A DNA stretch of 64,000 nucleotides, taken from positions 30,934 through 94,933 of the forward strand of contig JBDHUP010000001.1 of NCBI GenBank assembly GCA_039809245.1, written 5' to 3'. The notes beneath the pieces are model-generated. The model searched no databases and was not told the origin of the DNA. It worked only from the letters and a program-made list of their open reading frames with translations. The translations under genes were made by a program, and so were the position numbers. The DNA comes from Minisyncoccia bacterium (lineage in GTDB: Bacteria; Patescibacteriota; Minisyncoccia; Phycocordibacterales; UBA9973). Shown piece by piece: positions 3,602-58,818 of this stretch. Each line of letters starts with the position of its first letter. Positions within the stretch are counted from its first letter, which is position 1.

Positions 3602-3928
3602 ATGTCAAATTTTCGATCAGAAAAAATAACAAATCATATAAAAGAGCTTGCGGCAATGTTTATCGAAAAAGAAGCAGGCCCAACATCACTCATAACCGTG
3701 ACTCGAGTTCTTCTCTCTCCTGATAATAAAAAAGCGAGTATCATGATAAGTGTGCTACCAAGAGACAAAGAAGATGCTGCTTTTGGATTTGTAAGACGTA
3801 ATCTAGGAGAATTACGTAAATATATATCGAAGGGTTTGAAAGTTAATCCTGTCCCATTCCTAGATGTTAAGATAGATGAGGGTGAGAAGAATCGCCAAAA
3901 AATTGACGAATTGCTCACGAAAAGTTAG
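3602..3928 (+). CDS. rbfA: Ribosome-binding factor A
   Basis: 108 aa. ITNHIKELAAMFIEKEAGPTSLITVTRVLLSPDNKKASIMISVLP is a typical RbfA KH fold. Canonical infB-rbfA adjacency, 1-nt spacing. Confidence 0.8.
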   Translation: MSNFRSEKITNHIKELAAMFIEKEAGPTSLITVTRVLLSPDNKKASIMISVLPRDKEDAAFGFVRRNLGELRKYISKGLKVNPVPFLDVKIDEGEKNRQKIDELLTKS

Positions 3929-3939
3929 GATAGTCTTAC

Positions 3940-4014
3940 GGCGTGGTGGCGAAGTGGTAACGCTGCGGTCTGCAAAACCGCCATTCGCGGGTTCGATTCC
4001 CGCCCACGCCTCCA
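3940..4014 (+). tRNA. tRNA-Cys (anticodon GCA)
   Basis: GGCGTGG acceptor stem pairs with CCACGCC. Anticodon stem GCGGT/ACCGC with loop CTGCAAA gives anticodon GCA. T-arm GGTTCGATTCC. Encoded CCA at the 3' end. Confidence 0.8.
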
Positions 4015-4048
4015 CGCGAGAAATCGCGAAGTGTTCACAAGTAAATAT

Positions 4049-4133
4049 GCCCAGGTGGCGGAATTGGTATACGCGCTAGTCTTAGGAACTAGTGGAGCAA
4101 TCCTTGGAGGTTCAAGTCCTCTCCTGGGCACCA
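4049..4133 (+). tRNA. tRNA-Leu (anticodon TAG), class II with long variable arm
   Basis: GCCCAGG acceptor pairs with CCTGGGC. Anticodon stem CTAGT/ACTAG with loop CTTAGGA gives anticodon TAG. Long variable arm TGGAGCAATCCTTGGAGG. T-arm GGTTCAAGTCC. Encoded CCA. Confidence 0.8.
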
Positions 4134-4964
4134 GAATGGAACAAGTCGCTGTTCTAAAGCTTCAAATCCATTTTTACATTTATACTGCAAGCTATTTTCA
4201 GAAAAATAAAGTTCAGAAAAGATATATCGGGTAAACTTATCTTTTTCAGCAGGGTTAGCAATAAAATCATATAGCATAAGGTTTTTCAAGAGTTCAGAAA
4301 GTTCAATTACTTTTTGAGCAACTTCCAAAATACTTGCAGTAGTAGTCTGCTCCTGTTGCGTTAACTGAACATATTGATTATTCAATTGCATCTCAGATTC
4401 CAGGTAACTTTCCGGAGTATATACGCCTGTTCTGAGTAAATTCAATTTGTTTTGCTGCAAGTAGTTGATATCCTCTTGCGTCTTTCTTTTTTGCCTATCT
4501 ATACTTGCCAAATGCTCTATTCTCTTTTGTTCTACTTCCGGTAATTCTATTTTTGTACTCTTCTCAATTTGAAGAAGCTCATCTTCGGTCAGAATCAATT
4601 TTTCAATAGTTTTTGAGATAACGCTATCGATAATCCCGTTATTAAAATTCTTGGTTTTATTCTCACAAAGAGGTTTACAATTTACACAGTAATACTGTAT
4701 ACCCTTTTTTATATATGGGGTGTAAACCCTTTGACAATTACCACATCGTATTAAACCTCTGTATGGATAAAATAGTTCACTGGAATATTTCACACTTACA
4801 TTTTTCTTATTCAACATCTGTTGCACCTTCATAAAGACTTCTTCGGATATTAATGGTTCATGGCTATTACTTTTTATGAATGTATCATTATTACCCACTA
4901 CACTTGAAAAAGTTGCAAAAGCATCAGGCGTTAAACTGGTTGATTTTTTTGAAGCTGACGACAA
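4089..4964 (-). pseudogene. Truncated large serine recombinase: C-terminal recombinase tail, zinc-ribbon and coiled-coil only; N-terminal resolvase catalytic domain absent
   Basis: 291-aa ORF. EPLISEEVFMKVQQML is the typical end of the recombinase domain. RCGNCQRVYTP...YYCVNCK is the Zn-ribbon. A long coiled-coil follows. There is no resolvase/invertase N-terminal domain and no upstream ORF that could supply it. The ORF's last 15 codons are encoded by the 3' half of tRNA-Leu (4089..4133). Confidence 0.6.
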
Positions 4965-5088
4965 TAATTTGGAAGATATAAATTCCTACGATGCTTCTTT
5001 GATGAAAAAGATGGTCTTTGCTTTTGTGGATGCTCTCGTAGGTAAGAAAAATTAAAGGATGCAATTAGTGGCGTTCTATCTGATATAA

Positions 5089-5120
5089 AGTAAGAAAGCT
5101 CCGAAAGGAGCTTTCTTACT
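5089..5120 (-). terminator. Rho-independent terminator downstream of the LRR gene
   Basis: Perfect palindrome AAGAAAGCTCC-GAAA-GGAGCTTTCTT, flanked by T-runs on the minus strand. Confidence 0.5.
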
Positions 5121-5125
5121 TATTT

Positions 5126-5980
5126 TTAAGCATATAGTTTACCAAAATCTTCTCTTCTGTGTGTGTAGTGTTTCCTGTTTTGATACGAGATTTTATTTAG
5201 ACTTTTTAGTTTTGTTATTGGTAATAAGTCACCGTCAATAATATTGGTTGATTCATAAAATAAAAAATCTTTTAGCTTTGTCAAATATTCTATCCCTTTG
5301 ATGCTTGCAATATCTCCTAAATCAATAAGTAAAAGGCGTTTAAGCTTCTTCAAGTGCAACACTTCGGATATGTTAGATATTCCTTTACAACTTTGAATTT
5401 CTAACTCTTCTAATTCGTGCAAATTTTGAAGCCCTTGAAGCGATGTTAATTTCTTTAAATTCCCTAATCGTAAAGTTTTTAAGTCTTTTAATGCTGATAG
5501 TCCTTGAATATTTTCAATGGGTGAATTTAATATTGACAACTCTTTAAGATTAAATAATTTTGAAAACATATCGCTACCTTTTTTATCATAGGTATTAATG
5601 AAAAGCTTTTGAATACTTGATGTTTCAAATAAAGAATCAGAACCTTTTATCCACTCAAAACTACATTCTACAAGGTTAGGAAAAGCATTGAAATTTATTG
5701 GTGTCTTACAGTACGTTGATATTTCAAATTTAAGTAATCCACTTAAACTATATATAGGTTTAATAGATTTTATACTAAAATCAATGATAGTTAGTGATTT
5801 CAGATTGGGAAGAAATTCAAGAAAATCTACATTATCCCCACGCCAACCCTTACTATCATTTAACTCTATTTCTTGTATATTTTTATCTAAAAGCAACTTT
5901 AAATACGAATCTTGCCACAACCCTTTTACAATTGCCTTTGTCCCTAATAATCCATTTTCAAATTCGATATTATTACTCAT
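5126..5980 (-). CDS. Leucine-rich repeat (LRR) protein
   Basis: 284 aa. About 22-residue periodic L..L..L.L..N.I repeats (LKELSILNSPIENIQGLSALKDLKTLRLGNLKKLTSLQGLQNLHELEELEIQSC...). No signal peptide. Confidence 0.6.
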   Translation of the reverse strand: MSNNIEFENGLLGTKAIVKGLWQDSYLKLLLDKNIQEIELNDSKGWRGDNVDFLEFLPNLKSLTIIDFSIKSIKPIYSLSGLLKFEISTYCKTPINFNAFPNLVECSFEWIKGSDSLFETSSIQKLFINTYDKKGSDMFSKLFNLKELSILNSPIENIQGLSALKDLKTLRLGNLKKLTSLQGLQNLHELEELEIQSCKGISNISEVLHLKKLKRLLLIDLGDIASIKGIEYLTKLKDFLFYESTNIIDGDLLPITKLKSLNKISYQNRKHYTHRREDFGKLYA

Positions 5981-5983
5981 AGT

Positions 5984-6457
5984 CTATGGGATTTTAGGTA
6001 ATAAATATTGTCTTGCTGGTCTAATTGGGTTACGGATGTTCTCAAGATACTTGATACCCCCAAAAGAATTTATACGTAACTGTTCTGCGATTTCTCGGGC
6101 AGTTTTACCACCTAAAACTTCTGTGGTTTTAACTACAGTTCCGGGCAATAATTTACCTGATGCAATGTGCTCTTCAAGTCTAGCTGCTATATTCCCTGAT
6201 TGCCCTATGTACGTTTTGCCTGATACTGCTGTAAACTGATAAATACCTTCAGTTGCTTGCACTCCCATTTTAGCTGCATTTAAGATATTTACAGTTTTAG
6301 CAACTACATTATAAGGCAAAGTAGTTACAAGTGCAAGTGCAGAAATTGTTGTAGCAGCATTTTTTGTTGTAAAAAAAGAGGTAGCTGCAACCTGATGCAA
6401 ATAAAAATAATTGGGGTGTCCTTCTACTACAGACTGAATATACTTTTGCTCCCACAT
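5984..6457 (-). CDS. GIY-YIG nuclease-domain protein
   Basis: 157 aa. GIYQFTAVSGKTYIGQSGNIAARLEEH matches the GIY...YIG...R...E core motif. Preceded by a 65-aa N-terminal region of unknown function. 4 nt downstream of the LRR gene stop. Confidence 0.5.
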   Translation of the reverse strand: MWEQKYIQSVVEGHPNYFYLHQVAATSFFTTKNAATTISALALVTTLPYNVVAKTVNILNAAKMGVQATEGIYQFTAVSGKTYIGQSGNIAARLEEHIASGKLLPGTVVKTTEVLGGKTAREIAEQLRINSFGGIKYLENIRNPIRPARQYLLPKIP

Positions 6458-6724
6458 CTTATTAGCTTCATCAAAAGGATTATGATAAATGAGTAAGCAA
6501 AATTAAAGAAACTCTATCTAGATACCCTAGCTCTTTGGTGGTCTTAATTGATTGCCACATATAAATGTAAAGTACCTATATTCCATAGGCTAAATAAATA
6601 AACTAGAATGGAACTTGTAGCAGTCTGCTTCTATTGCGCTATAGTGTTTTTTCAAAGGTTCTTGATTTATTCTAAATAAAATGTTATTTTTAATAAAAAT
6701 TGTAAACTACTAAAACTCCTAACT

Positions 6725-7153
6725 ATGCAAAAGACAACAACTGCGTTGCTTATTTTTTGGAAAGACGTAACGTTATTAGCACCGTCAAAATCAAAACACA
6801 GATTAATTGGACAAATTGATCCATTAGCCTGTTCCAACTTATTCTCATCAGAAAGAGAAAGGGTGAATTACATAAAGGATACCCTTGTTGGTAAAAAATT
6901 TGGTGGAAAGAATTTTCACACCAATTTTCATCTGATAAACAATCCTATCAAATTTAATCATGTGGATGAGCTTGGTCAAAAACTTTTTACAGCCTACATT
7001 GCCACTATCAAAAATGAAAAAATATTGAGAAATGGCTTCATTATTGATGAATCAGAAATGTGGGTAAACTTAGAGGAAATTAAAAAAAACAAAGGGTTTA
7101 TAATAAGCCCCATGTTTAAAAAAGCTCTCTGCTGTGTGTCTAAAATTCCCTAA
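6725..7153 (+). CDS. Hypothetical protein; weak call
   Basis: 142-aa ORF in an otherwise minus-strand region. No recognisable motifs. Confidence 0.2.
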   Translation: MQKTTTALLIFWKDVTLLAPSKSKHRLIGQIDPLACSNLFSSERERVNYIKDTLVGKKFGGKNFHTNFHLINNPIKFNHVDELGQKLFTAYIATIKNEKILRNGFIIDESEMWVNLEEIKKNKGFIISPMFKKALCCVSKIP

Positions 7154-7236
7154 ACCAGAGCAAACGTGTAATCCTCAATAAACAATAGTTTATTGAGGAT
7201 TTTATTTATATTGATGCTAAATTATTATAAGGATCA

Positions 7237-10200
7237 TCAATACAATCCAGAGTTGAACCCCGAAGGAACAGAGCACATGAACGGTCTAGCTCCAAAATTC
7301 GCTGTACCGTCTGAATCTTGATACTGAGAACCCCAAGCTGGGTAAATAGTTCCAGACAGACCAGTGAATGCTGTGCCTAGCGAGCTACAATTCTTATAAA
7401 AACTTATTGTCTTTGAATCCATATCAAGAGCAACACCTATCACATCTCCATTATGCCCTTCGGTTCCATAATACCCTTGGTTACCAACATGGAATTTAAC
7501 ACCGTCATCCATAACCATAGACCACCCTGAAGAATCTTCTCCAAGAATCCTATTGAGATTTGCTGAACTAGTTGCAACTCCGACAAACTGGTCACCTGAT
7601 TTATCTAATTTAACTTCCCAATACCATTTACCACTTGATTTACCGATTTTTGATCTAACAACTCCGATTCCTCTATTCCAAGAAGCGGTAAGGTTTCCAT
7701 TAGAAAGTGAAACCTTTGATCCTTTATCTGAAGGGTTCCATGTAGTATAAGTCACTTTAGATGGTAAAACAACACCGTTATGAACAGTCGCAGAAACAGC
7801 AGAGGCATTCCCAATATTACCAGCCGCATCGTATGCTTTAGCGGTGAGAGAGTACGCACCGTTAGAAACGGTTGTAGTATTCCAAGTTATAGCCCAAGGT
7901 GCTGTAGTATCTGTATCTATCAAAGTATTATTTTTATAAAAATTAACTTTTGTGACTCCAATATTATCTGTAGCACTAGCTGCTAAAGTGACTACACTTG
8001 ATAAGGTTTGACCACTAGAAGGACTTGTGATTGCAACTACTGGAGGTATTGTATCTGGACCAGGAGAAACAGTATTACTCACAATAACAGACACAGGAGT
8101 CGATATAGTACTGTTACCTGCCGCATCGTATGCTTTAGCGGTTAATAAATGTATCCCATTAGAAACGGTTGTAGTATTCCAAGAATAACTATAATTTGAA
8201 GCAGGGTTCCCCGAACCTAATAACACAGGATTGCCAGTAGTAGGATTTCTATAAAAGTCGACATGATCTACCCCTATATTATCACTTACATTAACTATGA
8301 TTACTTTATTCTGTGATATCGTTTGTCCATTAGTAGGGTTTGTGATTAAAACTAATGGAGATGTTGTATCTGGACCATTATTAACAGTAATGGTAACTGT
8401 ATCAGTAGCAAATAAACCTCCATTATCAGTGACTTTTAATTGGAATGTATAAGACCCTTGTGAAAGACCTGTGACACCTGTTCCGACATTATTGGGGGTT
8501 GTCATAGAACCAGAACCTCCAGAGATTTTTGTCCACAGGTATGTTAAAGGACCATTCTCTGGATCACTACTTAGACTTCCAGAAAGAGAAGCTGAATTTG
8601 TAGGAAGAGTTATTGTTTGATCGGCTCCAGCATTTGCAACTGGAGGAAGATTCGAAGATATTAGTGTAGTAAAGTTGTATGTATAATTCGAAGCTAAATG
8701 ATTACCAGCAATATCAGTAATGGCAGTTGTTAAAGTCACTGAATAAGTTACACCCGCTGAAAGTGAAGATAAAGGAGTAATAGTAATCTTATTATTACTA
8801 TATGTTGAAGTAGAAGAAATTATATTAGATCCTTGCTTAATTTGTACACTTGAAGTTGTAACCGTACTTGAATTTAAAGGTTCACTAAATGTCACGACAG
8901 GTTTAATCGTAACAGGTACTCCTGTAGAGTTATTAGTTGGGGTTACACTTACAACTGTAGGAGGAGTAGTATCCGATGGAGGTGGAGTTGAACCTGTTTC
9001 TAGATAACCTATATCAGGAGCAGATCCACTAAATGGAAGACCGACGTTAATCCCAGAGTCGATGAGAGGAGAACTCGCAGATAAAGAATATGTTGAGGTG
9101 TTTGCAAAGGCAGGGTTGATATTAATTAGATTGTTAGCATAGGTATAGTTAACAGGTGCTGGTGCATTTGCAAGTAGCGGAGCATTATCATTCCCATTAC
9201 CATACATATCATTATTACTAATATTAAGATTTGTAATACCAACAGAACTATACTGAGTAATAGGAGCACCCATAGCACCATTAATAATATTATTCTTTAT
9301 ATTAACATTACTTATCGAACCGGAATCTATACTAGGTAATTGAATTCCCCACCAAGTCTGATTTGATGGAGACATAATCATAGTATTATTATAAACACTA
9401 AGACCATTATAAGTTACATTGGTATGACCATCACCTCCAAAATTTATAAAAAATCCTGTACCCTCTCCCATTCCTATATTTTTAATAAGATTTCGACGAA
9501 TAATATTGTTTTTAATAACTGAATTATCTCTTGGAGTATATAGAACGCCAGTTGTAATTTTATCAAAAACATTATCTTCTACTATAGCTGTATCTGTCTG
9601 AAATTCTAACGTAACAGCTGTTTGAATATAATTATTTATATAAGGCATTTGTATCAGATTGTGATGAATCCAAGTTGAAAAAGCATATGAGCCTTTATCT
9701 TGGTAATTTAGATCAATTCCACCACCATTCATTGTATTGTTATAAATCTCCAATCCTTGAACATTGAATAATTCAATGGCAAAATCCCAGTTATTATTAC
9801 CTTCTGGAGCACCGTTCATAATCTTATTGAGAGTATTATTATAGATTTTAACTCCTTTCAAATATCCATCATTCCAATATTTTATAGGCCAACCATTTTG
9901 TCCTTGAGGTCTACTGTCCTGAGTAATAGTATTATTATAAATCAACATGCCATCTTGTCCTCCAATATTTAAAGCTCCTGCTCCATATTGATTATTTACA
10001 TATCTAGCACTATTAGTCATTATATTATCATGAAAAGAATTACCAGTAGCATAAATATTAGGAGCACCATCTCCAGTATCTATTCTACCTCCAAACAAAA
10101 CTCCTCTATCTTTAAAATCTTGTATAGTTGTATTGTAAATACTAACATTACTTCTTCCAGCAACTTGAATTCCCCAGAATGTATGCAAATTCTGACCATC

Positions 10201-10659
10201 AATTTTAAGATTTGAAATATGCTGATTACCATTAGTTCCTTCAGCGTTTGAAGTAAGCTCTATCATGGCTGTCCAATCACTACTAAGATTACTTTTCAAT
10301 ATAGAATTATTCCCATTTCCTTCAATGCTGACACCTGTATGCAATAGACAAGCTTCAGATTCTATATATGTACCAGCATTAACATGTATAATATCTCCTG
10401 AACCAGAGACTGAATTACAAGCTTTTGCAAGAGTCTTCCATGGAGAAGATTGAGCCCCAGAGTTAGAATCATTACCAGCAGTATCTACATAATATGTATT
10501 TCCGGCAGCAAAAGTGTGACTTGAAGATATCACAATTCCAACACTAAATATGAATGCTACTATTAATACAATATAGTGTACTGTATTCTTATTGGCTGTC
10601 TGGTGCCATTTATAATACCATGCTAAGTTGCTCTCTAATCTTTTATGTAGCTTTTCCAT
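7237..10659 (-). CDS. Giant cell-surface protein: N-terminal TM/signal anchor, right-handed parallel beta-helix region, Ig-like and PKD domains, C-terminal SPRY/B30.2-like domain
   Basis: 1140 aa. N-terminal hydrophobic anchor VHYIVLIVAFIFSVGIVISS. Asn-rich NN[IL] beta-helix repeats. PKD motif LTYLWTKISGGSGS. Two about 98-aa Ig-like repeats (DNIGVDHVDFYRN... and DNIGVTKVNFYKN...). C-terminal WNPSD...GKWYWEVKLD...GDVIGVALDMDSKTISFYKN...PAWG matches the SPRY pattern. Confidence 0.75.
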   Translation of the reverse strand: MEKLHKRLESNLAWYYKWHQTANKNTVHYIVLIVAFIFSVGIVISSSHTFAAGNTYYVDTAGNDSNSGAQSSPWKTLAKACNSVSGSGDIIHVNAGTYIESEACLLHTGVSIEGNGNNSILKSNLSSDWTAMIELTSNAEGTNGNQHISNLKIDGQNLHTFWGIQVAGRSNVSIYNTTIQDFKDRGVLFGGRIDTGDGAPNIYATGNSFHDNIMTNSARYVNNQYGAGALNIGGQDGMLIYNNTITQDSRPQGQNGWPIKYWNDGYLKGVKIYNNTLNKIMNGAPEGNNNWDFAIELFNVQGLEIYNNTMNGGGIDLNYQDKGSYAFSTWIHHNLIQMPYINNYIQTAVTLEFQTDTAIVEDNVFDKITTGVLYTPRDNSVIKNNIIRRNLIKNIGMGEGTGFFINFGGDGHTNVTYNGLSVYNNTMIMSPSNQTWWGIQLPSIDSGSISNVNIKNNIINGAMGAPITQYSSVGITNLNISNNDMYGNGNDNAPLLANAPAPVNYTYANNLININPAFANTSTYSLSASSPLIDSGINVGLPFSGSAPDIGYLETGSTPPPSDTTPPTVVSVTPTNNSTGVPVTIKPVVTFSEPLNSSTVTTSSVQIKQGSNIISSTSTYSNNKITITPLSSLSAGVTYSVTLTTAITDIAGNHLASNYTYNFTTLISSNLPPVANAGADQTITLPTNSASLSGSLSSDPENGPLTYLWTKISGGSGSMTTPNNVGTGVTGLSQGSYTFQLKVTDNGGLFATDTVTITVNNGPDTTSPLVLITNPTNGQTISQNKVIIVNVSDNIGVDHVDFYRNPTTGNPVLLGSGNPASNYSYSWNTTTVSNGIHLLTAKAYDAAGNSTISTPVSVIVSNTVSPGPDTIPPVVAITSPSSGQTLSSVVTLAASATDNIGVTKVNFYKNNTLIDTDTTAPWAITWNTTTVSNGAYSLTAKAYDAAGNIGNASAVSATVHNGVVLPSKVTYTTWNPSDKGSKVSLSNGNLTASWNRGIGVVRSKIGKSSGKWYWEVKLDKSGDQFVGVATSSANLNRILGEDSSGWSMVMDDGVKFHVGNQGYYGTEGHNGDVIGVALDMDSKTISFYKNCSSLGTAFTGLSGTIYPAWGSQYQDSDGTANFGARPFMCSVPSGFNSGLY
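7790..8400. repeat. Two tandem, roughly 296-bp direct repeats inside the surface-protein gene that encode the Ig-like domains
   Basis: Near-identical 60-nt blocks gccgcatcgtatgctttagcggt...gaaacggttgtagtattccaag occur at about 7829 and about 8125. Confidence 0.5.
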
Positions 10660-10757
10660 ATGTTTATATAAATCTATATTTATTATTATAAGCTAATTAT
10701 ACCAATATAGAGTGGTATGTCTATAAGAATTGTGTATAACTAATAAGCTGATAAAAT

Positions 10758-28973: not shown

Positions 28974-31900
28974 TTATAGAATATTTATTCTGAATACTAA
29001 TTCATCGATTTTTACTTCAGTGCCTTTATTCTCTGAGAAGTTTAAATCTTTAGCTCCGACGACTTTCAATAAGTCAGGTTTGTATTTATTTATCAGATCC
29101 TCTCCTTCTTTGCTTGTCTCTATCTTAAGTTCAATTACATCACTAGGTGTAAGCTTAGCCTCTTTGCGCATATCTTGAATAGCGCGAACCAGTTCACGAT
29201 AATTACCTTCTTCTTTTAATTCTGGAGTTATAACTGTATCAAATACTATGTTTTCATCTTTACCTTTCTCTATACTCTTTACATTAAGCTCATCTTTTAT
29301 AAGTGCTTGATATTCAGCACTTGGAACTTCTGGGACATATAGAGTTGAGAGTGGTTGTCGGACAGGAATAACATTCTTCTTGCGAAGCATATTCCCTGCG
29401 CTACAATAGTCACGAACAATTTGCATCTCTTTAAATACTTCTTCTTTTACTTTTCCCGCTTCTGGCCATTCTGCTAAATGCACACTCTCTTTATCAGAAT
29501 CATTTTTAAGTTTCTGCCAGATATCCTCTGAGGCAAATGGCGCAAAAGGAGCCATAACTTTCACTAAAGTTTTCAACACATAGTAGAGGGTACGCTTTGC
29601 ATCTTCATCACCATCTTTGAGTCTATCTCTTGAGCGACGAACATACCAAGTCGAAAGCTCGTCGATGAACTCGCGCATCTCGCGAACTGGTTCTAAAAGT
29701 TTATAGCTATCCAAGTTCTTAGTTGTGTTTGCTAAGAGCTTGCTTAGTCGAGCGACAATCCACTGATCGAGAATATTGTCTGAGGTTTTATATTTCTCAC
29801 TTTCTAGATTCTTGTCTCTATATAGTTCGTAGAACGCGAGGACATTGTAAAGCAAGTTAAAGACTTGCTGTTGAAGTAGAACTACAGTCTTCTCGTCGAA
29901 GTTCTTGGATTCACCTGGCTGATTCACTGAGTACATCCATAAGCGTAGAGTATCCACTCCATACTTCTCTATCATAAGCCATGGATCGACAATATTACCC
30001 AAAGATTTAGACATCTTCTTCCCTTTCTCATCTAAGATATGACCTAGGCAAATAACGTTCTTATAGGCTTTACCGCGCCCTGTGAGCACACCTACAGCAT
30101 GAAGTGTATAGAACCAACCTCGAGTCTGATCTATCGCTTCTGATATATAGTCTGCTGGGAATCCTTTGCCATCTACCCATTTCTTATTCTCAAATGGATA
30201 GTGATCTTGCGCGAATGGCATCGCACCTGAGTCGAACCATACATCCATAACTTCTTTGACTCTTGTCATCTCCCCACCATCTTTATCTATCAACTTCACT
30301 TGGTCGATGAATGGCTTATGGAAGTCGAGTTCATAATCATCATTATGAGGAACTGGCACGAAAGGTAACTCTCGAACTTCTGCATTATCGAAACGTTTGA
30401 AGTCTGGGACGAACACATGAGTATTCGCAACTTGATAATTCTTATTCTCTGGGGTAAACAATCCTGAGTTCACAAAGCATAGCCAAGCAGGACCACCATG
30501 AGTAATGATTAATATATTCTTGTCTTTATATTTTTCTTCTAGTTCATATAGTGCTTCGGCGGTACGTCTTTGCACTTCTTTCAGTGATTCACCGCCACCG
30601 ATCTTCTGGTTGAACCAATCAGAACCTACATTTGTATACACATACTCATGATAAGCAGTCCAATTCTTACCATCGAAATCTCCAGGGTCTACTTCTTGGA
30701 ATCTTTTATCATAGATAATACTTTCTTTAGACAAGCCTAAAGTTTCCGCCACGATCTCGGCTGTCTCTTTCGTGCGAGTAAATGGTGAAGATACGATCAT
30801 ATCTATCTTTTTCTTTTTTAGTTCTTTCTCTGTTTTTTTCTTGACTTCGCTCTCACCTTCTTTAGTAAGGTTATCTGTTGCTTGATTCTTATAGCTAACA
30901 AGCTCTTTCAAGTTGCCTTCTGTTCCACCATGACGCATTACAAAATATTTGTTGCCAGAATTCTTAGTCTTTTCTTTCAGTTCATCGAGACTTCCTATCA
31001 CTTCGAATTCCCCGTCGGCTTTCTGCCAGATAGGAAGTGGGGTCCCCCAGTAACGTTCACGAGATATCGCCCAGTCTTTAATATCTTTAAGCCATTCACC
31101 AAAGCGCCCTTCACGTATATGTGATGGTTCCCAGTTTATAGTTTTATTCTCATTTATGAGTTGCTTCTTTATCTTCTCATCTGACATTCTAATATACCAA
31201 GAATCGCGCGCGTAGTAGATAAGTGGAGTCTTACATCGCCAACAGTGTGGGTATGAGTGTTCGTATTTCTCTTTCTTGAAAAGCAATCCTCTGTGTGCAA
31301 GGTCTTTAATAATATCTATAGCGACTTCTTCATCTTTTACAAATCGTCCTTCTAGAAAACCTGTACCTTTCACAAAGTGACCTGAATCATCAACAGTGTG
31401 CATTTTTGGCAATCCTAGCTTTGTTCCAAGCTCGAAGTCATCCTGACCGTACATGACAGCAGTATGTACAACACCAGTACCATCAGTCGTAGTCACGAAA
31501 TCTGCTGGGTAAACTTTGAATGCTTTACTTACATCCTCACCTTTTTTCTCTAGTGAATCTTTCAGGTATGGGTAAAGTGGTTCGTATTCTAAGCCAACTA
31601 ATCCACTACCTTTAACATCTTCAATATATTCTTGAACCCCTCCAAATGAGCTTTCCATTCTTTCCCTAGCACAAATCAAGTATTCTTTACCAACTTTAAC
31701 TTTTACATAATCAATATCTTTCCCCACAGCAAGAGCAACGTTTCCAGGTAATGTCCATGGAGTTGTCGTCCAAGCTAGGATGTAAGTGTTATCTTGTCCT
31801 ACAACTTTAAACTTTCCAGTTACCGATAAATCTTTATCATCTTGATATCCTTGTGCAAGTTCGTGCGATGAAAGAGCCGTACCACAGCGAGGACACCAAG

Positions 31901-57423: not shown

Positions 57424-58818
57424 TTAATTCACAGTTATTGTTACATCATCAGAGTTTGTATCACCATAATCATCTGTGACAGTTAATCTAAAGACGTAAG
57501 TTCCTGGAGTAATATCATCTACATCCGTTATATCCGATGTTGGATCGACGATTGTCGCTGGTCCACCTGATACCTTAGTCCATAAAAAAGAATCAATATA
57601 CCCATCACTATCGGTTCCGTTACCATTTAAAGTCAAATATCCTTCTGGTAAAGTAATAGTTTGATCTGGGCCTGCATCCGCTACTGGAGGGTTATTTGTA
57701 GTTACATTTTCTACTGTGACCGTAATCGTATCAGTCCCAGTTGCTCCTTGATTATCGGTTACTGTAAATTTGAATACATAAGTCCCTGCGGACAAATTAT
57801 CCACATCTGTAGTATCAGAAGATGGGTTGGATATTGTAGCAGATCCACCTGAGATTTTTGTCCAATTATAAGAAACTATACTTCCGTCTGAATCATTTCC
57901 ATAACCACTCAGAGTAACAAAATTATCAGGCATAGTTATCGTTTCATCTGGACCTGCGTCTGCATAAGGAGGATTGTTAGATTGAGGTGATGATTCATCG
58001 TTTACAATTACACTAACATCATCATAAGATGTATCGTTTTTATTATCAACAACTGTCAGTCTAAATACATATGAACCTAATACTAAATTATTTATTTCTG
58101 TACTAGAAGAATTAGGTGAAACTATATTTGCAGATCCACCTGAAATTTTTGTCCAATTATAAGAAACTATACTTCCATCAGAGTCGCTTCCTGAACCAAG
58201 TAGAGTAACTGATGACGTCGGAAGGGTTACATATTTATCAGGCCCGGCACTTGCAAAAGGTGGGATATTATTTATTCCTTGTTGTGAAGTACTTGTTGTA
58301 GTTTTTAGGGTAGAAGCAGAAGTAGATTTATTTGAAGCTATTTTGGTTTTTGTAGTTTTAGTTGTAGCTGGGAAACCGCTTGCTGTTACATATAATTCAT
58401 CGGCCGATTTATATCCTTCTGAATCTGTTACGACCAGACGAAATATATATATTCCATTTTGAAGGTTTTTAACAACAGTAGTACTTGAATCTGGCGAAAC
58501 AATGGTGGCCTTACCACCAGAGAGTTTGAACCACATATAATTAACCCACCCTCCATCCTTTGTCGTAGCCGACCCTTTTAGAGTAAAAGAGTTGGTCGGA
58601 TATTTAACCACAATATCAGGACCAGCATCTACTTTAATATTACTTAATGAATCGTTGATAACTAGACTGTCTTCGATATCAGAAGTTTGTTTATCTAAAA
58701 AAGGTATCTTTCCTAGACCTGGATGTGTTTCTCTGAGGTAAAAGATACTACCAACAAATATAATTGCTGTAAAAAATACAAGGATGAAAGTTGATATAGA
58801 TCCTTTATTTAATTTCAT
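57424..58818 (-). CDS. Membrane-anchored protein with four tandem PKD-like domains
   Basis: 464 aa. N-terminal TM. Four about 95-aa repeats, each DAGPD.T..LP...V.L.G.G.DSDGSIVSYNWTKISGG.A.I..P.S..T.V.NL..G.Y.F...VTD. Confidence 0.7.
   Translation of the reverse strand: MKLNKGSISTFILVFFTAIIFVGSIFYLRETHPGLGKIPFLDKQTSDIEDSLVINDSLSNIKVDAGPDIVVKYPTNSFTLKGSATTKDGGWVNYMWFKLSGGKATIVSPDSSTTVVKNLQNGIYIFRLVVTDSEGYKSADELYVTASGFPATTKTTKTKIASNKSTSASTLKTTTSTSQQGINNIPPFASAGPDKYVTLPTSSVTLLGSGSDSDGSIVSYNWTKISGGSANIVSPNSSSTEINNLVLGSYVFRLTVVDNKNDTSYDDVSVIVNDESSPQSNNPPYADAGPDETITMPDNFVTLSGYGNDSDGSIVSYNWTKISGGSATISNPSSDTTDVDNLSAGTYVFKFTVTDNQGATGTDTITVTVENVTTNNPPVADAGPDQTITLPEGYLTLNGNGTDSDGYIDSFLWTKVSGGPATIVDPTSDITDVDDITPGTYVFRLTVTDDYGDTNSDDVTITVN
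57430..58330. repeat. Tandem, roughly 290-bp DNA repeats encoding the PKD domains
   Basis: Near-identical blocks gatccacctgagatttttgtccaattataagaaactatacttcc recur at about 57845 and about 58134. Confidence 0.5.

Follow-up and report, generated by a model that had tools for sequence, protein, structure and literature searches.

A SPRY domain of the prokaryote/phage branch at the end of a predicted modular surface protein encoded at a conserved, putatively saccharibacterial locus

The 64,000-nucleotide stretch analyzed here ("the window"; positions 30,934 to 94,933 of contig JBDHUP010000001.1) carries on its reverse strand a gene for a 1140-residue protein with a SPRY domain at its C terminus. 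Our analyses confirmed that the last ~175 residues are a true SPRY domain, and sequence comparisons indicated that this domain belongs to a large prokaryote/phage branch of the family. They further indicated that the gene is a stable resident of its locus, that it evolves fast and that its modules are exchanged by recombination. We propose that the product is a membrane-anchored surface protein that binds, and perhaps degrades, the glycans of a partner cell, with SPRY as a distal lectin-like head. We give this reading a probability of about 0.55; within it, we infer surface exposure, the binding of glycans or of a partner cell, and any enzymatic activity. A role in binding a host or partner cell, which an earlier note on this DNA (the original prediction) had put forward, is plausible.

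RESULTS AND DISCUSSION

The C-terminal domain is a SPRY domain of the SPRY-only type

The gene occupies 7237..10659 on the (-) strand as an uninterrupted open reading frame (ORF) whose stop codon lies at 7237-7239. Both the 1140-residue ORF and the C-terminal sequence quoted in the original prediction agreed exactly with our translation, and its interval for the domain, 7240-7765, corresponds to aa 966-1140. We place the SPRY domain and its N-terminal extension at aa 966-1140 (7240..7764, [-] strand), based on Pfam, a Protein Data Bank (PDB) search, a structural model, a fold search and domain-wise identities, the last of which assign it to subtype A (see below).

When the whole protein was searched against Pfam, PF00622 matched aa 1011-1123, the SPRY core (7291-7629, [-] strand; E 8.9e-22). 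When the last 187 residues were scanned alone, the same profile scored 81.6 bits against a gathering cut-off of 26.3 (E 6e-23) and was covered from position 1 to position 119 of 121. A sequence search of the PDB aligned nearly the whole 187 residues with the SPRY domains of RanBP10 (E 1e-19) and RanBP9 (E 9e-19), and this alignment reached into the N-terminal extension, where TWNPSDK stands opposite SWSPKDK. Further matches were to the SPRY domains of TRIM9/67, ASH2L, SPSB, DDX1 and the ryanodine receptor.

The predicted fold gave the same answer. An AlphaFold2 model built from a 92-sequence alignment was all beta, with a mean predicted local distance difference test (pLDDT) score of 96.8, and it superposed on ASH2L, RanBP9/10 and DDX1 with TM values of ~0.8 and root mean square deviations of 1.4 to 2.0 Å. 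In a Foldseek search of the PDB, all of the top 50 matches were SPRY domains (query-normalized TM, 0.70 to 0.84); therefore, the resemblance is not limited to a generic concanavalin-like or LamG lectin fold. The Pfam and AlphaFold checks that the original prediction had suggested thus both bore out its central claim. Its label "B30.2-like" did not survive, since PRY had no Pfam match at E ≤ 1 in either the whole protein or the last 187 residues; the domain is of the SPRY-only type, with an extension like that of RanBP9/10. The window's domain resembles this class (RanBP9/RanBP10, ASH2L and DDX1) in its profile, in its full-length alignment to RanBP9/10, extension included, and in its superposable predicted fold. 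However, it is only 25 to 33% identical to the eukaryotic members, and it ends a bacterial beta-helix/Ig/PKD protein that is predicted to be extracellular or surface displayed.

The SPRY domain belongs to a prokaryote/phage branch

Although the original prediction described SPRY domains as overwhelmingly eukaryotic and uncommon in bacteria, our searches indicated that this was overstated. An exhaustive HMMER search of 1.84 billion cluster representatives (clustered at 50% identity) returned 10,704 SPRY matches at E ≤ 1e-3, 3,961 at E ≤ 1e-10 and 188 at E ≤ 1e-30, many of them in proteins that were very long or carried two to seven SPRY stretches. A scan of species-representative genomes in GTDB found 73 SPRY loci, in which the best SPRY match was 61% identical to the window's. 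Many of these loci lie in phyla of the candidate phyla radiation (CPR), among them Saccharibacteria, Paceibacteria, Gracilibacteria, Moraniibacteriota, Yonathbacteria and Microgenomates; others lie in Proteobacteria, Bacillota, Bacteroidota and one archaeon. Across the 73 loci, the domain was stand-alone, C-terminal, internal or N-terminal.

In a database of 5.8 billion proteins, the last 187 residues had 495 relatives at E ≤ 1e-3; the best 120 of the 495 were 43 to 56% identical, and nearly all of these were SPRY-only proteins of ~190 residues. The closest SPRY domains overall were those of P0241 (78% identical), P0249 and P0288, which are fragments of orthologs with the order PKD-Big_7-SPRY. 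The P0241 fragment (640 residues, metagenomic) carries a PKD domain, two Big_7 domains and then two tandem SPRY domains, so the head appears to be duplicated in some alleles.

All of the close relatives that we inspected were prokaryotic or phage proteins. Given the size of this set, and given that its closest members are 45 to 78% identical to the window's domain versus ~33% for RanBP9/10, the domain is best assigned to the prokaryote/phage branch. The ~33% identity to RanBP9/10 reflects the eukaryotic bias of the PDB rather than recent eukaryotic ancestry.

Phage relatives were found in several collections. Thirty-seven records in an annotated phage collection matched the SPRY domain at 30 to 40% identity, among them Pelagibacter podophages, Ralstonia and Burkholderia jumbo phages, Bacillus phage G and Xanthomonas phages; the names given to these proteins include "SPRY domain containing protein," "virion structural protein" and "fiber protein." The matches in BFVD were phage B30.2/SPRY, tail fiber and lectin proteins, and those in PHROGs were phrog_10080 (unknown function), a "virion structural protein" family and a tail fiber protein. 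On metagenomic contigs, the SPRY protein P0044 (contig L001) is preceded by two beta-helix/PKD proteins, a Peptidase_S8 protein and a 1391-residue protein and is followed by Endonuclease VII and phage lysozyme genes, while P0060 (L003/L004; contig of 318 kb) lies among T4-gp15, K1-lyase_C, Peptidase_S74 and Laminin_G_3 genes. That SPRY domains occur in bacterial and phage surface or fiber proteins is already known. Iyer et al. (2021; PMC7824862) described SPRY as a concanavalin-fold lectin domain tied to jumbo-phage tail fibers and to further parts of the virion, and they regard it as having been acquired by eukaryotes.

These tail-fiber SPRY or concanavalin-fold lectins are the closest relatives outside the orthologs (45 to 56% identical on metagenomic phage contigs, 30 to 40% in cultured phages), and they are associated with beta-helix/PKD proteins that resemble tailspikes. 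They differ in that the phage domain is usually a stand-alone protein of ~190 residues or part of a virion protein, whereas the window's domain is fused to a predicted anchored cellular protein encoded at a conserved chromosomal locus.

The SPRY domain caps a long modular protein

The original prediction had described the protein as a beta-helix, two Ig-like domains and a PKD domain with SPRY at the distal end. SPRY does form the far end of a large protein that begins with a hydrophobic segment and also contains a beta-helix and Ig/PKD domains, and both the beta-helix and the PKD domain were recovered; the count of Ig-like domains was not, as there are three of these (one Big_5 and two Big_7) instead of two.

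The N-terminal region (aa 1 to 52; 10504..10659, [-] strand) is predicted from hydropathy and ortholog conservation to be a signal anchor or signal peptide. It consists of a basic segment with the motif WYxKWH, a single hydrophobic helix (~aa 26 to 47) and an HTFAAG junction. The 19 residues from aa 26 have a Kyte-Doolittle mean of 2.5, the sole strong hydropathy peak of the protein. The WYxKWH motif (aa 14 to 19; 10603-10620, [-] strand) occurs once in the window and is kept in the Saccharibacteria orthologs; it may be a lineage-specific export or sorting signal.

Residues 53 to 560 (8980..10503, [-] strand) were modeled by AlphaFold2 with a pLDDT of 90.8, and on this model their fold is established as a right-handed parallel beta-helix of the type found in carbohydrate-active enzymes and tailspikes. 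This module is followed by a Big_5 bacterial Ig-like domain (aa 563 to 665; 8665..8973, [-] strand; PF13205, E 1.2e-22), a K319L-like PKD domain (aa 677 to 759; 8383..8631, [-] strand; PF22352, E 2.6e-23) and two tandem Big_7 Ig-like domains (~aa 765 to 865 and 869 to 965; 7765..8367, [-] strand; PF17957, E 6.7e-30, in two stretches). The Big_7 tandem is backed by DNA repeats at a spacing of 297 to 315 nucleotides, and its two copies are 47% identical to each other. Searching the 1140-residue protein against NCBIfam yielded nothing meaningful. P0121, encoded on a 167,574-bp NCBI contig, is identical to it, and six relatives covering 97 to 100% of the protein have the same domain order.

The gene is part of a syntenic backbone

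The left part of the window is ordered class V aminotransferase, DUF4446, IF-2, tRNA-Cys, tRNA-Leu, a set of inserted genes, orf142 and the SPRY gene; diverging from the SPRY gene are genes for SecG, an SBP_bac_5 solute-binding protein (SBP5) and RNase J. A metagenome-assembled genome (MAG) named uncultured Candidatus Saccharibacteria (L012) has the order RNase J, SBP5, SecG, big protein, orf142 homolog, tRNA-Leu, tRNA-Cys and IF-2. The identities to the window are 77% for RNase J, 64% for SBP5, 92% for SecG, 47.6% for the big protein, 68% for orf142 and 75% for IF-2. The full-length relative P0142 (50% identical) likewise adjoins SecG-SBP5-RNase J in the same arrangement (L005/L006). Since its housekeeping neighbors are 75 to 92% identical to, and syntenic with, those of a named Saccharibacteria MAG, the genome appears to be Saccharibacteria-like.

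The original prediction had placed the gene in a putative island next to an integrase remnant. DNA homology between the window and L012 covers 3619-4131 and resumes at 6662-7126, so the strain-specific insertion comprises only ~4132-6661 (~2.5 kb). This insertion lies directly 3' of tRNA-Leu(tag) and is missing from L012. It is bracketed by an imperfect 23-bp direct repeat (4130-4152 and 6602-6624; 78% identical), the first copy of which begins at the 3' end of tRNA-Leu. No att-like direct repeats enclosing the SPRY gene were found, the sole repeat of the tRNA-Leu end being the one that brackets the insertion without the gene. The island is therefore confined to the insertion, and the SPRY gene, which L012 and L005 carry at the corresponding position, belongs together with orf142 to the syntenic backbone and not to the island's cargo.

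Modules have been exchanged between alleles

Although the locus is fixed, its product diverges quickly. In the comparison with L005, identity reaches 91% for RNase J, 92% for SecG and 87% for the next gene but only 49.6% for the big protein. This divergence is uneven along the protein. P0142 and P0155 are 93 to 96% identical in the N terminus, the beta-helix and the first Big_7 domain but 54% identical in SPRY; the P0155 SPRY domain is 81 to 82% identical to those of P0157 and P0163, and the P0163 beta-helix is only 58% identical to that of P0155. Domain-wise identities define two SPRY subtypes, subtype A (the window, P0142 and P0156) and subtype B (P0155, P0157, P0163 and L012), whose differences are spread over several inter-strand segments. 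These sequence comparisons show that SPRY heads have been swapped between alleles at a fixed locus.

The beta-helix points to a second kind of exchange. The window's helix is only 39 to 46% identical to those of six relatives with the same architecture versus 57 to 68% identical to those of a group of ~720-residue proteins (the P0176 group). P0176 itself is 64% identical to the window's protein over aa 17 to 560, and the similarity ends at the linker before Big_5. In a neighbor-joining tree, the window and the P0176 group stood apart from all Saccharibacteria orthologs with 200/200 bootstrap support. The syntenic L012 allele, in contrast, combines a Saccharibacteria-type helix (67 to 69% identical to those of P0142, P0155 and P0157 but 39% identical to the window's) with a SPRY domain of subtype B. 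Given that the window's helix groups with the P0176 group and that the similarity stops before Big_5, the sequences indicate that the window's allele is a chimera in which a Bacteroidota-type helix stands between an anchor and an Ig/PKD/SPRY tail that are both of Saccharibacteria type.

Several members of the P0176 group have sorting domains of the type IX secretion system (T9SS), and some lie on contigs of several megabases or have ordinary metabolic genes as neighbors; relatives farther away in the helix family are named Ferruginibacter or Bacteroidetes. In L081 (6001-11088), P0176 and P0189 are tandem T9SS-tailed paralogs of ~720 residues with metabolic neighbors in a non-CPR genome. Proteins of the P0176/P0189 type are likely the donor-type pool of the window's helix. 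The window's protein is like this Bacteroidota T9SS cargo (Ferruginibacter-like; P0176 group) in its helix, by identity and by position in the tree. It is unlike the cargo in its ends: the Bacteroidota proteins have a T9SS sorting domain and a cleavable signal peptide and lack a SPRY head, whereas the window's protein has a predicted N-terminal anchor of Saccharibacteria type and an Ig/PKD/SPRY tail.

Base composition (GC content and GC at third codon positions [GC3]) gave no clear sign of foreign origin. GC3 is 0.17 in the beta-helix, 0.28 in SPRY and 0.20 to 0.28 in the housekeeping neighbors, and overall GC is 0.33 in the helix and 0.41 in SPRY. The difference in composition between the modules is compatible with separate histories, yet it is inside the range of neighboring genes.

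A proposed surface recognition device fits best

In the mechanism that we propose, the single N-terminal hydrophobic helix would hold the protein in the membrane or direct its export, and the 500-residue beta-helix, with its lyase, hydrolase or tailspike fold, would lie next to the membrane. The four Ig/PKD domains would then serve as a stalk, and the SPRY beta-sandwich would form the distal tip, a lectin-like or ligand-binding head that would recognize a structure, probably a glycan, displayed by a partner or host bacterium on its surface. That polymer may also be what the beta-helix binds or cleaves. For an episymbiont, such a protein could provide attachment to the host envelope, perhaps with local degradation, and would be a cellular protein that works on the principle of a phage receptor-binding protein. 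Module exchange by recombination would be expected, since a specificity determinant would be under diversifying pressure. Taken together, the anatomy of the protein, its phage relatives, its fixed but fast-diverging locus and the independent swapping of heads and helices make a surface recognition device the best fit.

The idea of attachment and degradation is consistent with transposon sequencing results for the saccharibacterium Southlakia epibionticum, in which envelope proteins with glycan-binding or glycan-degrading domains are essential and host glycans are the proposed target (Wang et al. 2023; PMC10633639). Those proteins are similar to the window's in being cell-envelope proteins of the same phylum, in having lectin-like or glycan-related domains and in their proposed host-glycan targets. 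They differ in their domains, which are VCBS, dockerin and FnIII, with SPRY unmentioned in PMC10633639; the parallel is drawn by analogy.

The beta-helix itself constrains the function only loosely. Pfam had no beta-helix match at E ≤ 1 in aa 53 to 560 of the window's protein; its orthologs have matches to PF22842 or PF13229. When the beta-helix was compared by sequence with the PDB, only its N-terminal cap aligned, with the PL9 rhamnogalacturonan lyase 5olq (E 3e-6). Foldseek retrieved lyases and epimerases (RbmB, PL6, PL9 and the AlgE epimerases), glycosidases (GH136, GH87 and GH28), the tailspikes of phages Sf6, HK620 and Det7, and the adhesin PfbA, all at 10 to 16% identity and with TM values of 0.16 to 0.48.

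Several considerations count against the proposed reading. The eukaryotic SPRY domains with solved structures have peptides and proteins as their ligands, which makes a protein ligand no less possible than a glycan. The modeled fold matches, at their low identities and TM values, assign no enzyme family to the beta-helix, and the same fold occurs in PfbA, which is a non-enzymatic adhesin. The N-terminal helix is a predicted signal anchor or signal peptide, with export read purely from hydropathy. Finally, the window is placed in or near Saccharibacteria solely through synteny with, and identity to, named MAGs.

The main rival is a nutritional exo-enzyme, in which the beta-helix would be an active polysaccharide lyase or hydrolase, breaking down polymers from the environment or a host so that they can be taken up, and the SPRY and Ig/PKD domains would act as carbohydrate-binding and spacer modules, without cell-cell recognition. 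Polysaccharide lyases and glycosidases are indeed the best fold matches of the beta-helix, its nearest relatives are T9SS-secreted proteins of Bacteroidota (e.g., Ferruginibacter) that are typical secreted glycan degraders, and the adjacent divergent operon begins with SecG and the SBP_bac_5 solute-binding protein. However, allelic swapping and 50% divergence beside 91%-identical neighbors suggest recognition more than bulk catabolism, the N-terminal anchor is kept and the protein is not obviously released, and no Pfam lyase or hydrolase family was found on the window's protein. We therefore regard the exo-enzyme as unlikely, if still a serious contender.

A very improbable alternative is that the gene is a prophage or phage-derived tailspike or tail-fiber gene, encoding the receptor-binding protein of a virion. 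Each of the three module types has homologs in the tail modules of phages. On the phage-like contig L001 (1-8576), beta-helix, PKD and SPRY module types are adjacent separate genes: a 751-residue protein is 44.6% identical to the window's beta-helix over 561 residues (E 1e-116), the adjacent upstream gene encodes a PKD domain with 57% identity, and the SPRY gene has 48% identity, to the corresponding modules. By sequence, L001 looks like a "split" version of the window protein's architecture in a tail-fiber module. The PHROGs matches to a virion structural protein and a tail fiber protein point the same way, and a recombinase remnant lies 2.3 kb from the gene. The window's protein thus shares homologous beta-helix and distal modules with phage tailspike and fiber receptor-binding proteins, but its N terminus is a hydrophobic anchor where a virion-attachment domain or adaptor would be expected, and it is flanked by housekeeping genes, with no phage structural, packaging or lysis genes in the flanks. 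Moreover, the gene lies between orf142/tRNAs/IF-2 and SecG/SBP5/RNase J with synteny in three genomes, and the recombinase-bearing insertion ends at ~6661 and is missing from L012, which retains the gene. Synteny thus largely refutes a prophage tailspike, which the anchor also disfavors.

A eukaryote-derived SPRY domain that binds a eukaryotic host protein, by effector-like mimicry of TRIM/RanBP-type modules, comes close to what the original prediction stressed but is the least credible of the alternatives: it would account for the eukaryotic identity of the best solved relatives (RanBP9/10, TRIM9/67 and ASH2L) and for the reach of the RanBP9/10 alignment into the extension, but SPRY structures in the PDB are almost exclusively eukaryotic through sampling bias, each context inspected was bacterial or phage, the direction of transfer argued by Iyer et al. 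(2021; PMC7824862) is into eukaryotes, and the identities to hundreds of metagenomic prokaryotic and phage proteins (45 to 78%, versus ~33% for RanBP9/10) led us to reject it on nearest-relative evidence.

A candidate determinant of host specificity

To our knowledge, host-cell recognition and attachment by ultrasmall episymbiotic Patescibacteria are largely undescribed, and a literature search for SPRY together with Saccharibacteria found no paper linking them. What adds interest to the present case is that alleles exchange modules at a conserved locus and that the beta-helix crosses phyla. A predicted surface protein assembled from modules of the phage-receptor-binding type, encoded at a conserved locus, with swapped heads and a helix from another phylum, is a testable candidate for host specificity. 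Its SPRY domain also corrects a common assumption, in that it is assigned to a prokaryote/phage branch, in line with the published view of the domain as one acquired by eukaryotes, and is no eukaryote-like oddity in a bacterium.

More tentatively still, and as a doubtful extension of the recognition device favored here, the secG-adjacent locus might be a cassette-style specificity determinant of Saccharibacteria that acts in the manner of a phage receptor-binding protein, in which the distal SPRY head and the depolymerase-like helix are exchanged independently among lineages, and even imported from Bacteroidota or phage pools, so as to retarget the episymbiont to new host glycans. If this were true, the Bacteroidota-type helix could point to the polymer, or even the host, that this strain attacks.

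Other features of the window

A promoter-like site, TAGACA-16-TATAAT with an extended TG, lies at 10696..10723 ([-] strand), ~37 nucleotides upstream of the ATG, in the intergenic region between the gene and the divergent secG; it was identified by a consensus scan only and matches 11 of 12 consensus positions. At the other end of the gene, a hairpin with a 14-bp stem (7170..7201) lies where the SPRY gene and orf142 converge and may serve as a bidirectional terminator. orf142 itself (6725-7153, [+] strand) had no Pfam or PHROG match. The inserted genes comprise a truncated serine-recombinase remnant without the resolvase domain (4089-4964), a leucine-rich-repeat protein (5126-5980) and a weakly GIY-YIG-like ORF (5984-6457). 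Rfam and ARAGORN scans found two tRNAs only.

Elsewhere in the window, a 464-residue ORF (57424-58818, [-] strand) encodes four tandem K319L-like PKD repeats; the SPRY protein's PKD domain shares 46 to 49% identity with three of them and 37% with the fourth. This ORF may encode another surface protein that uses the same module pool.

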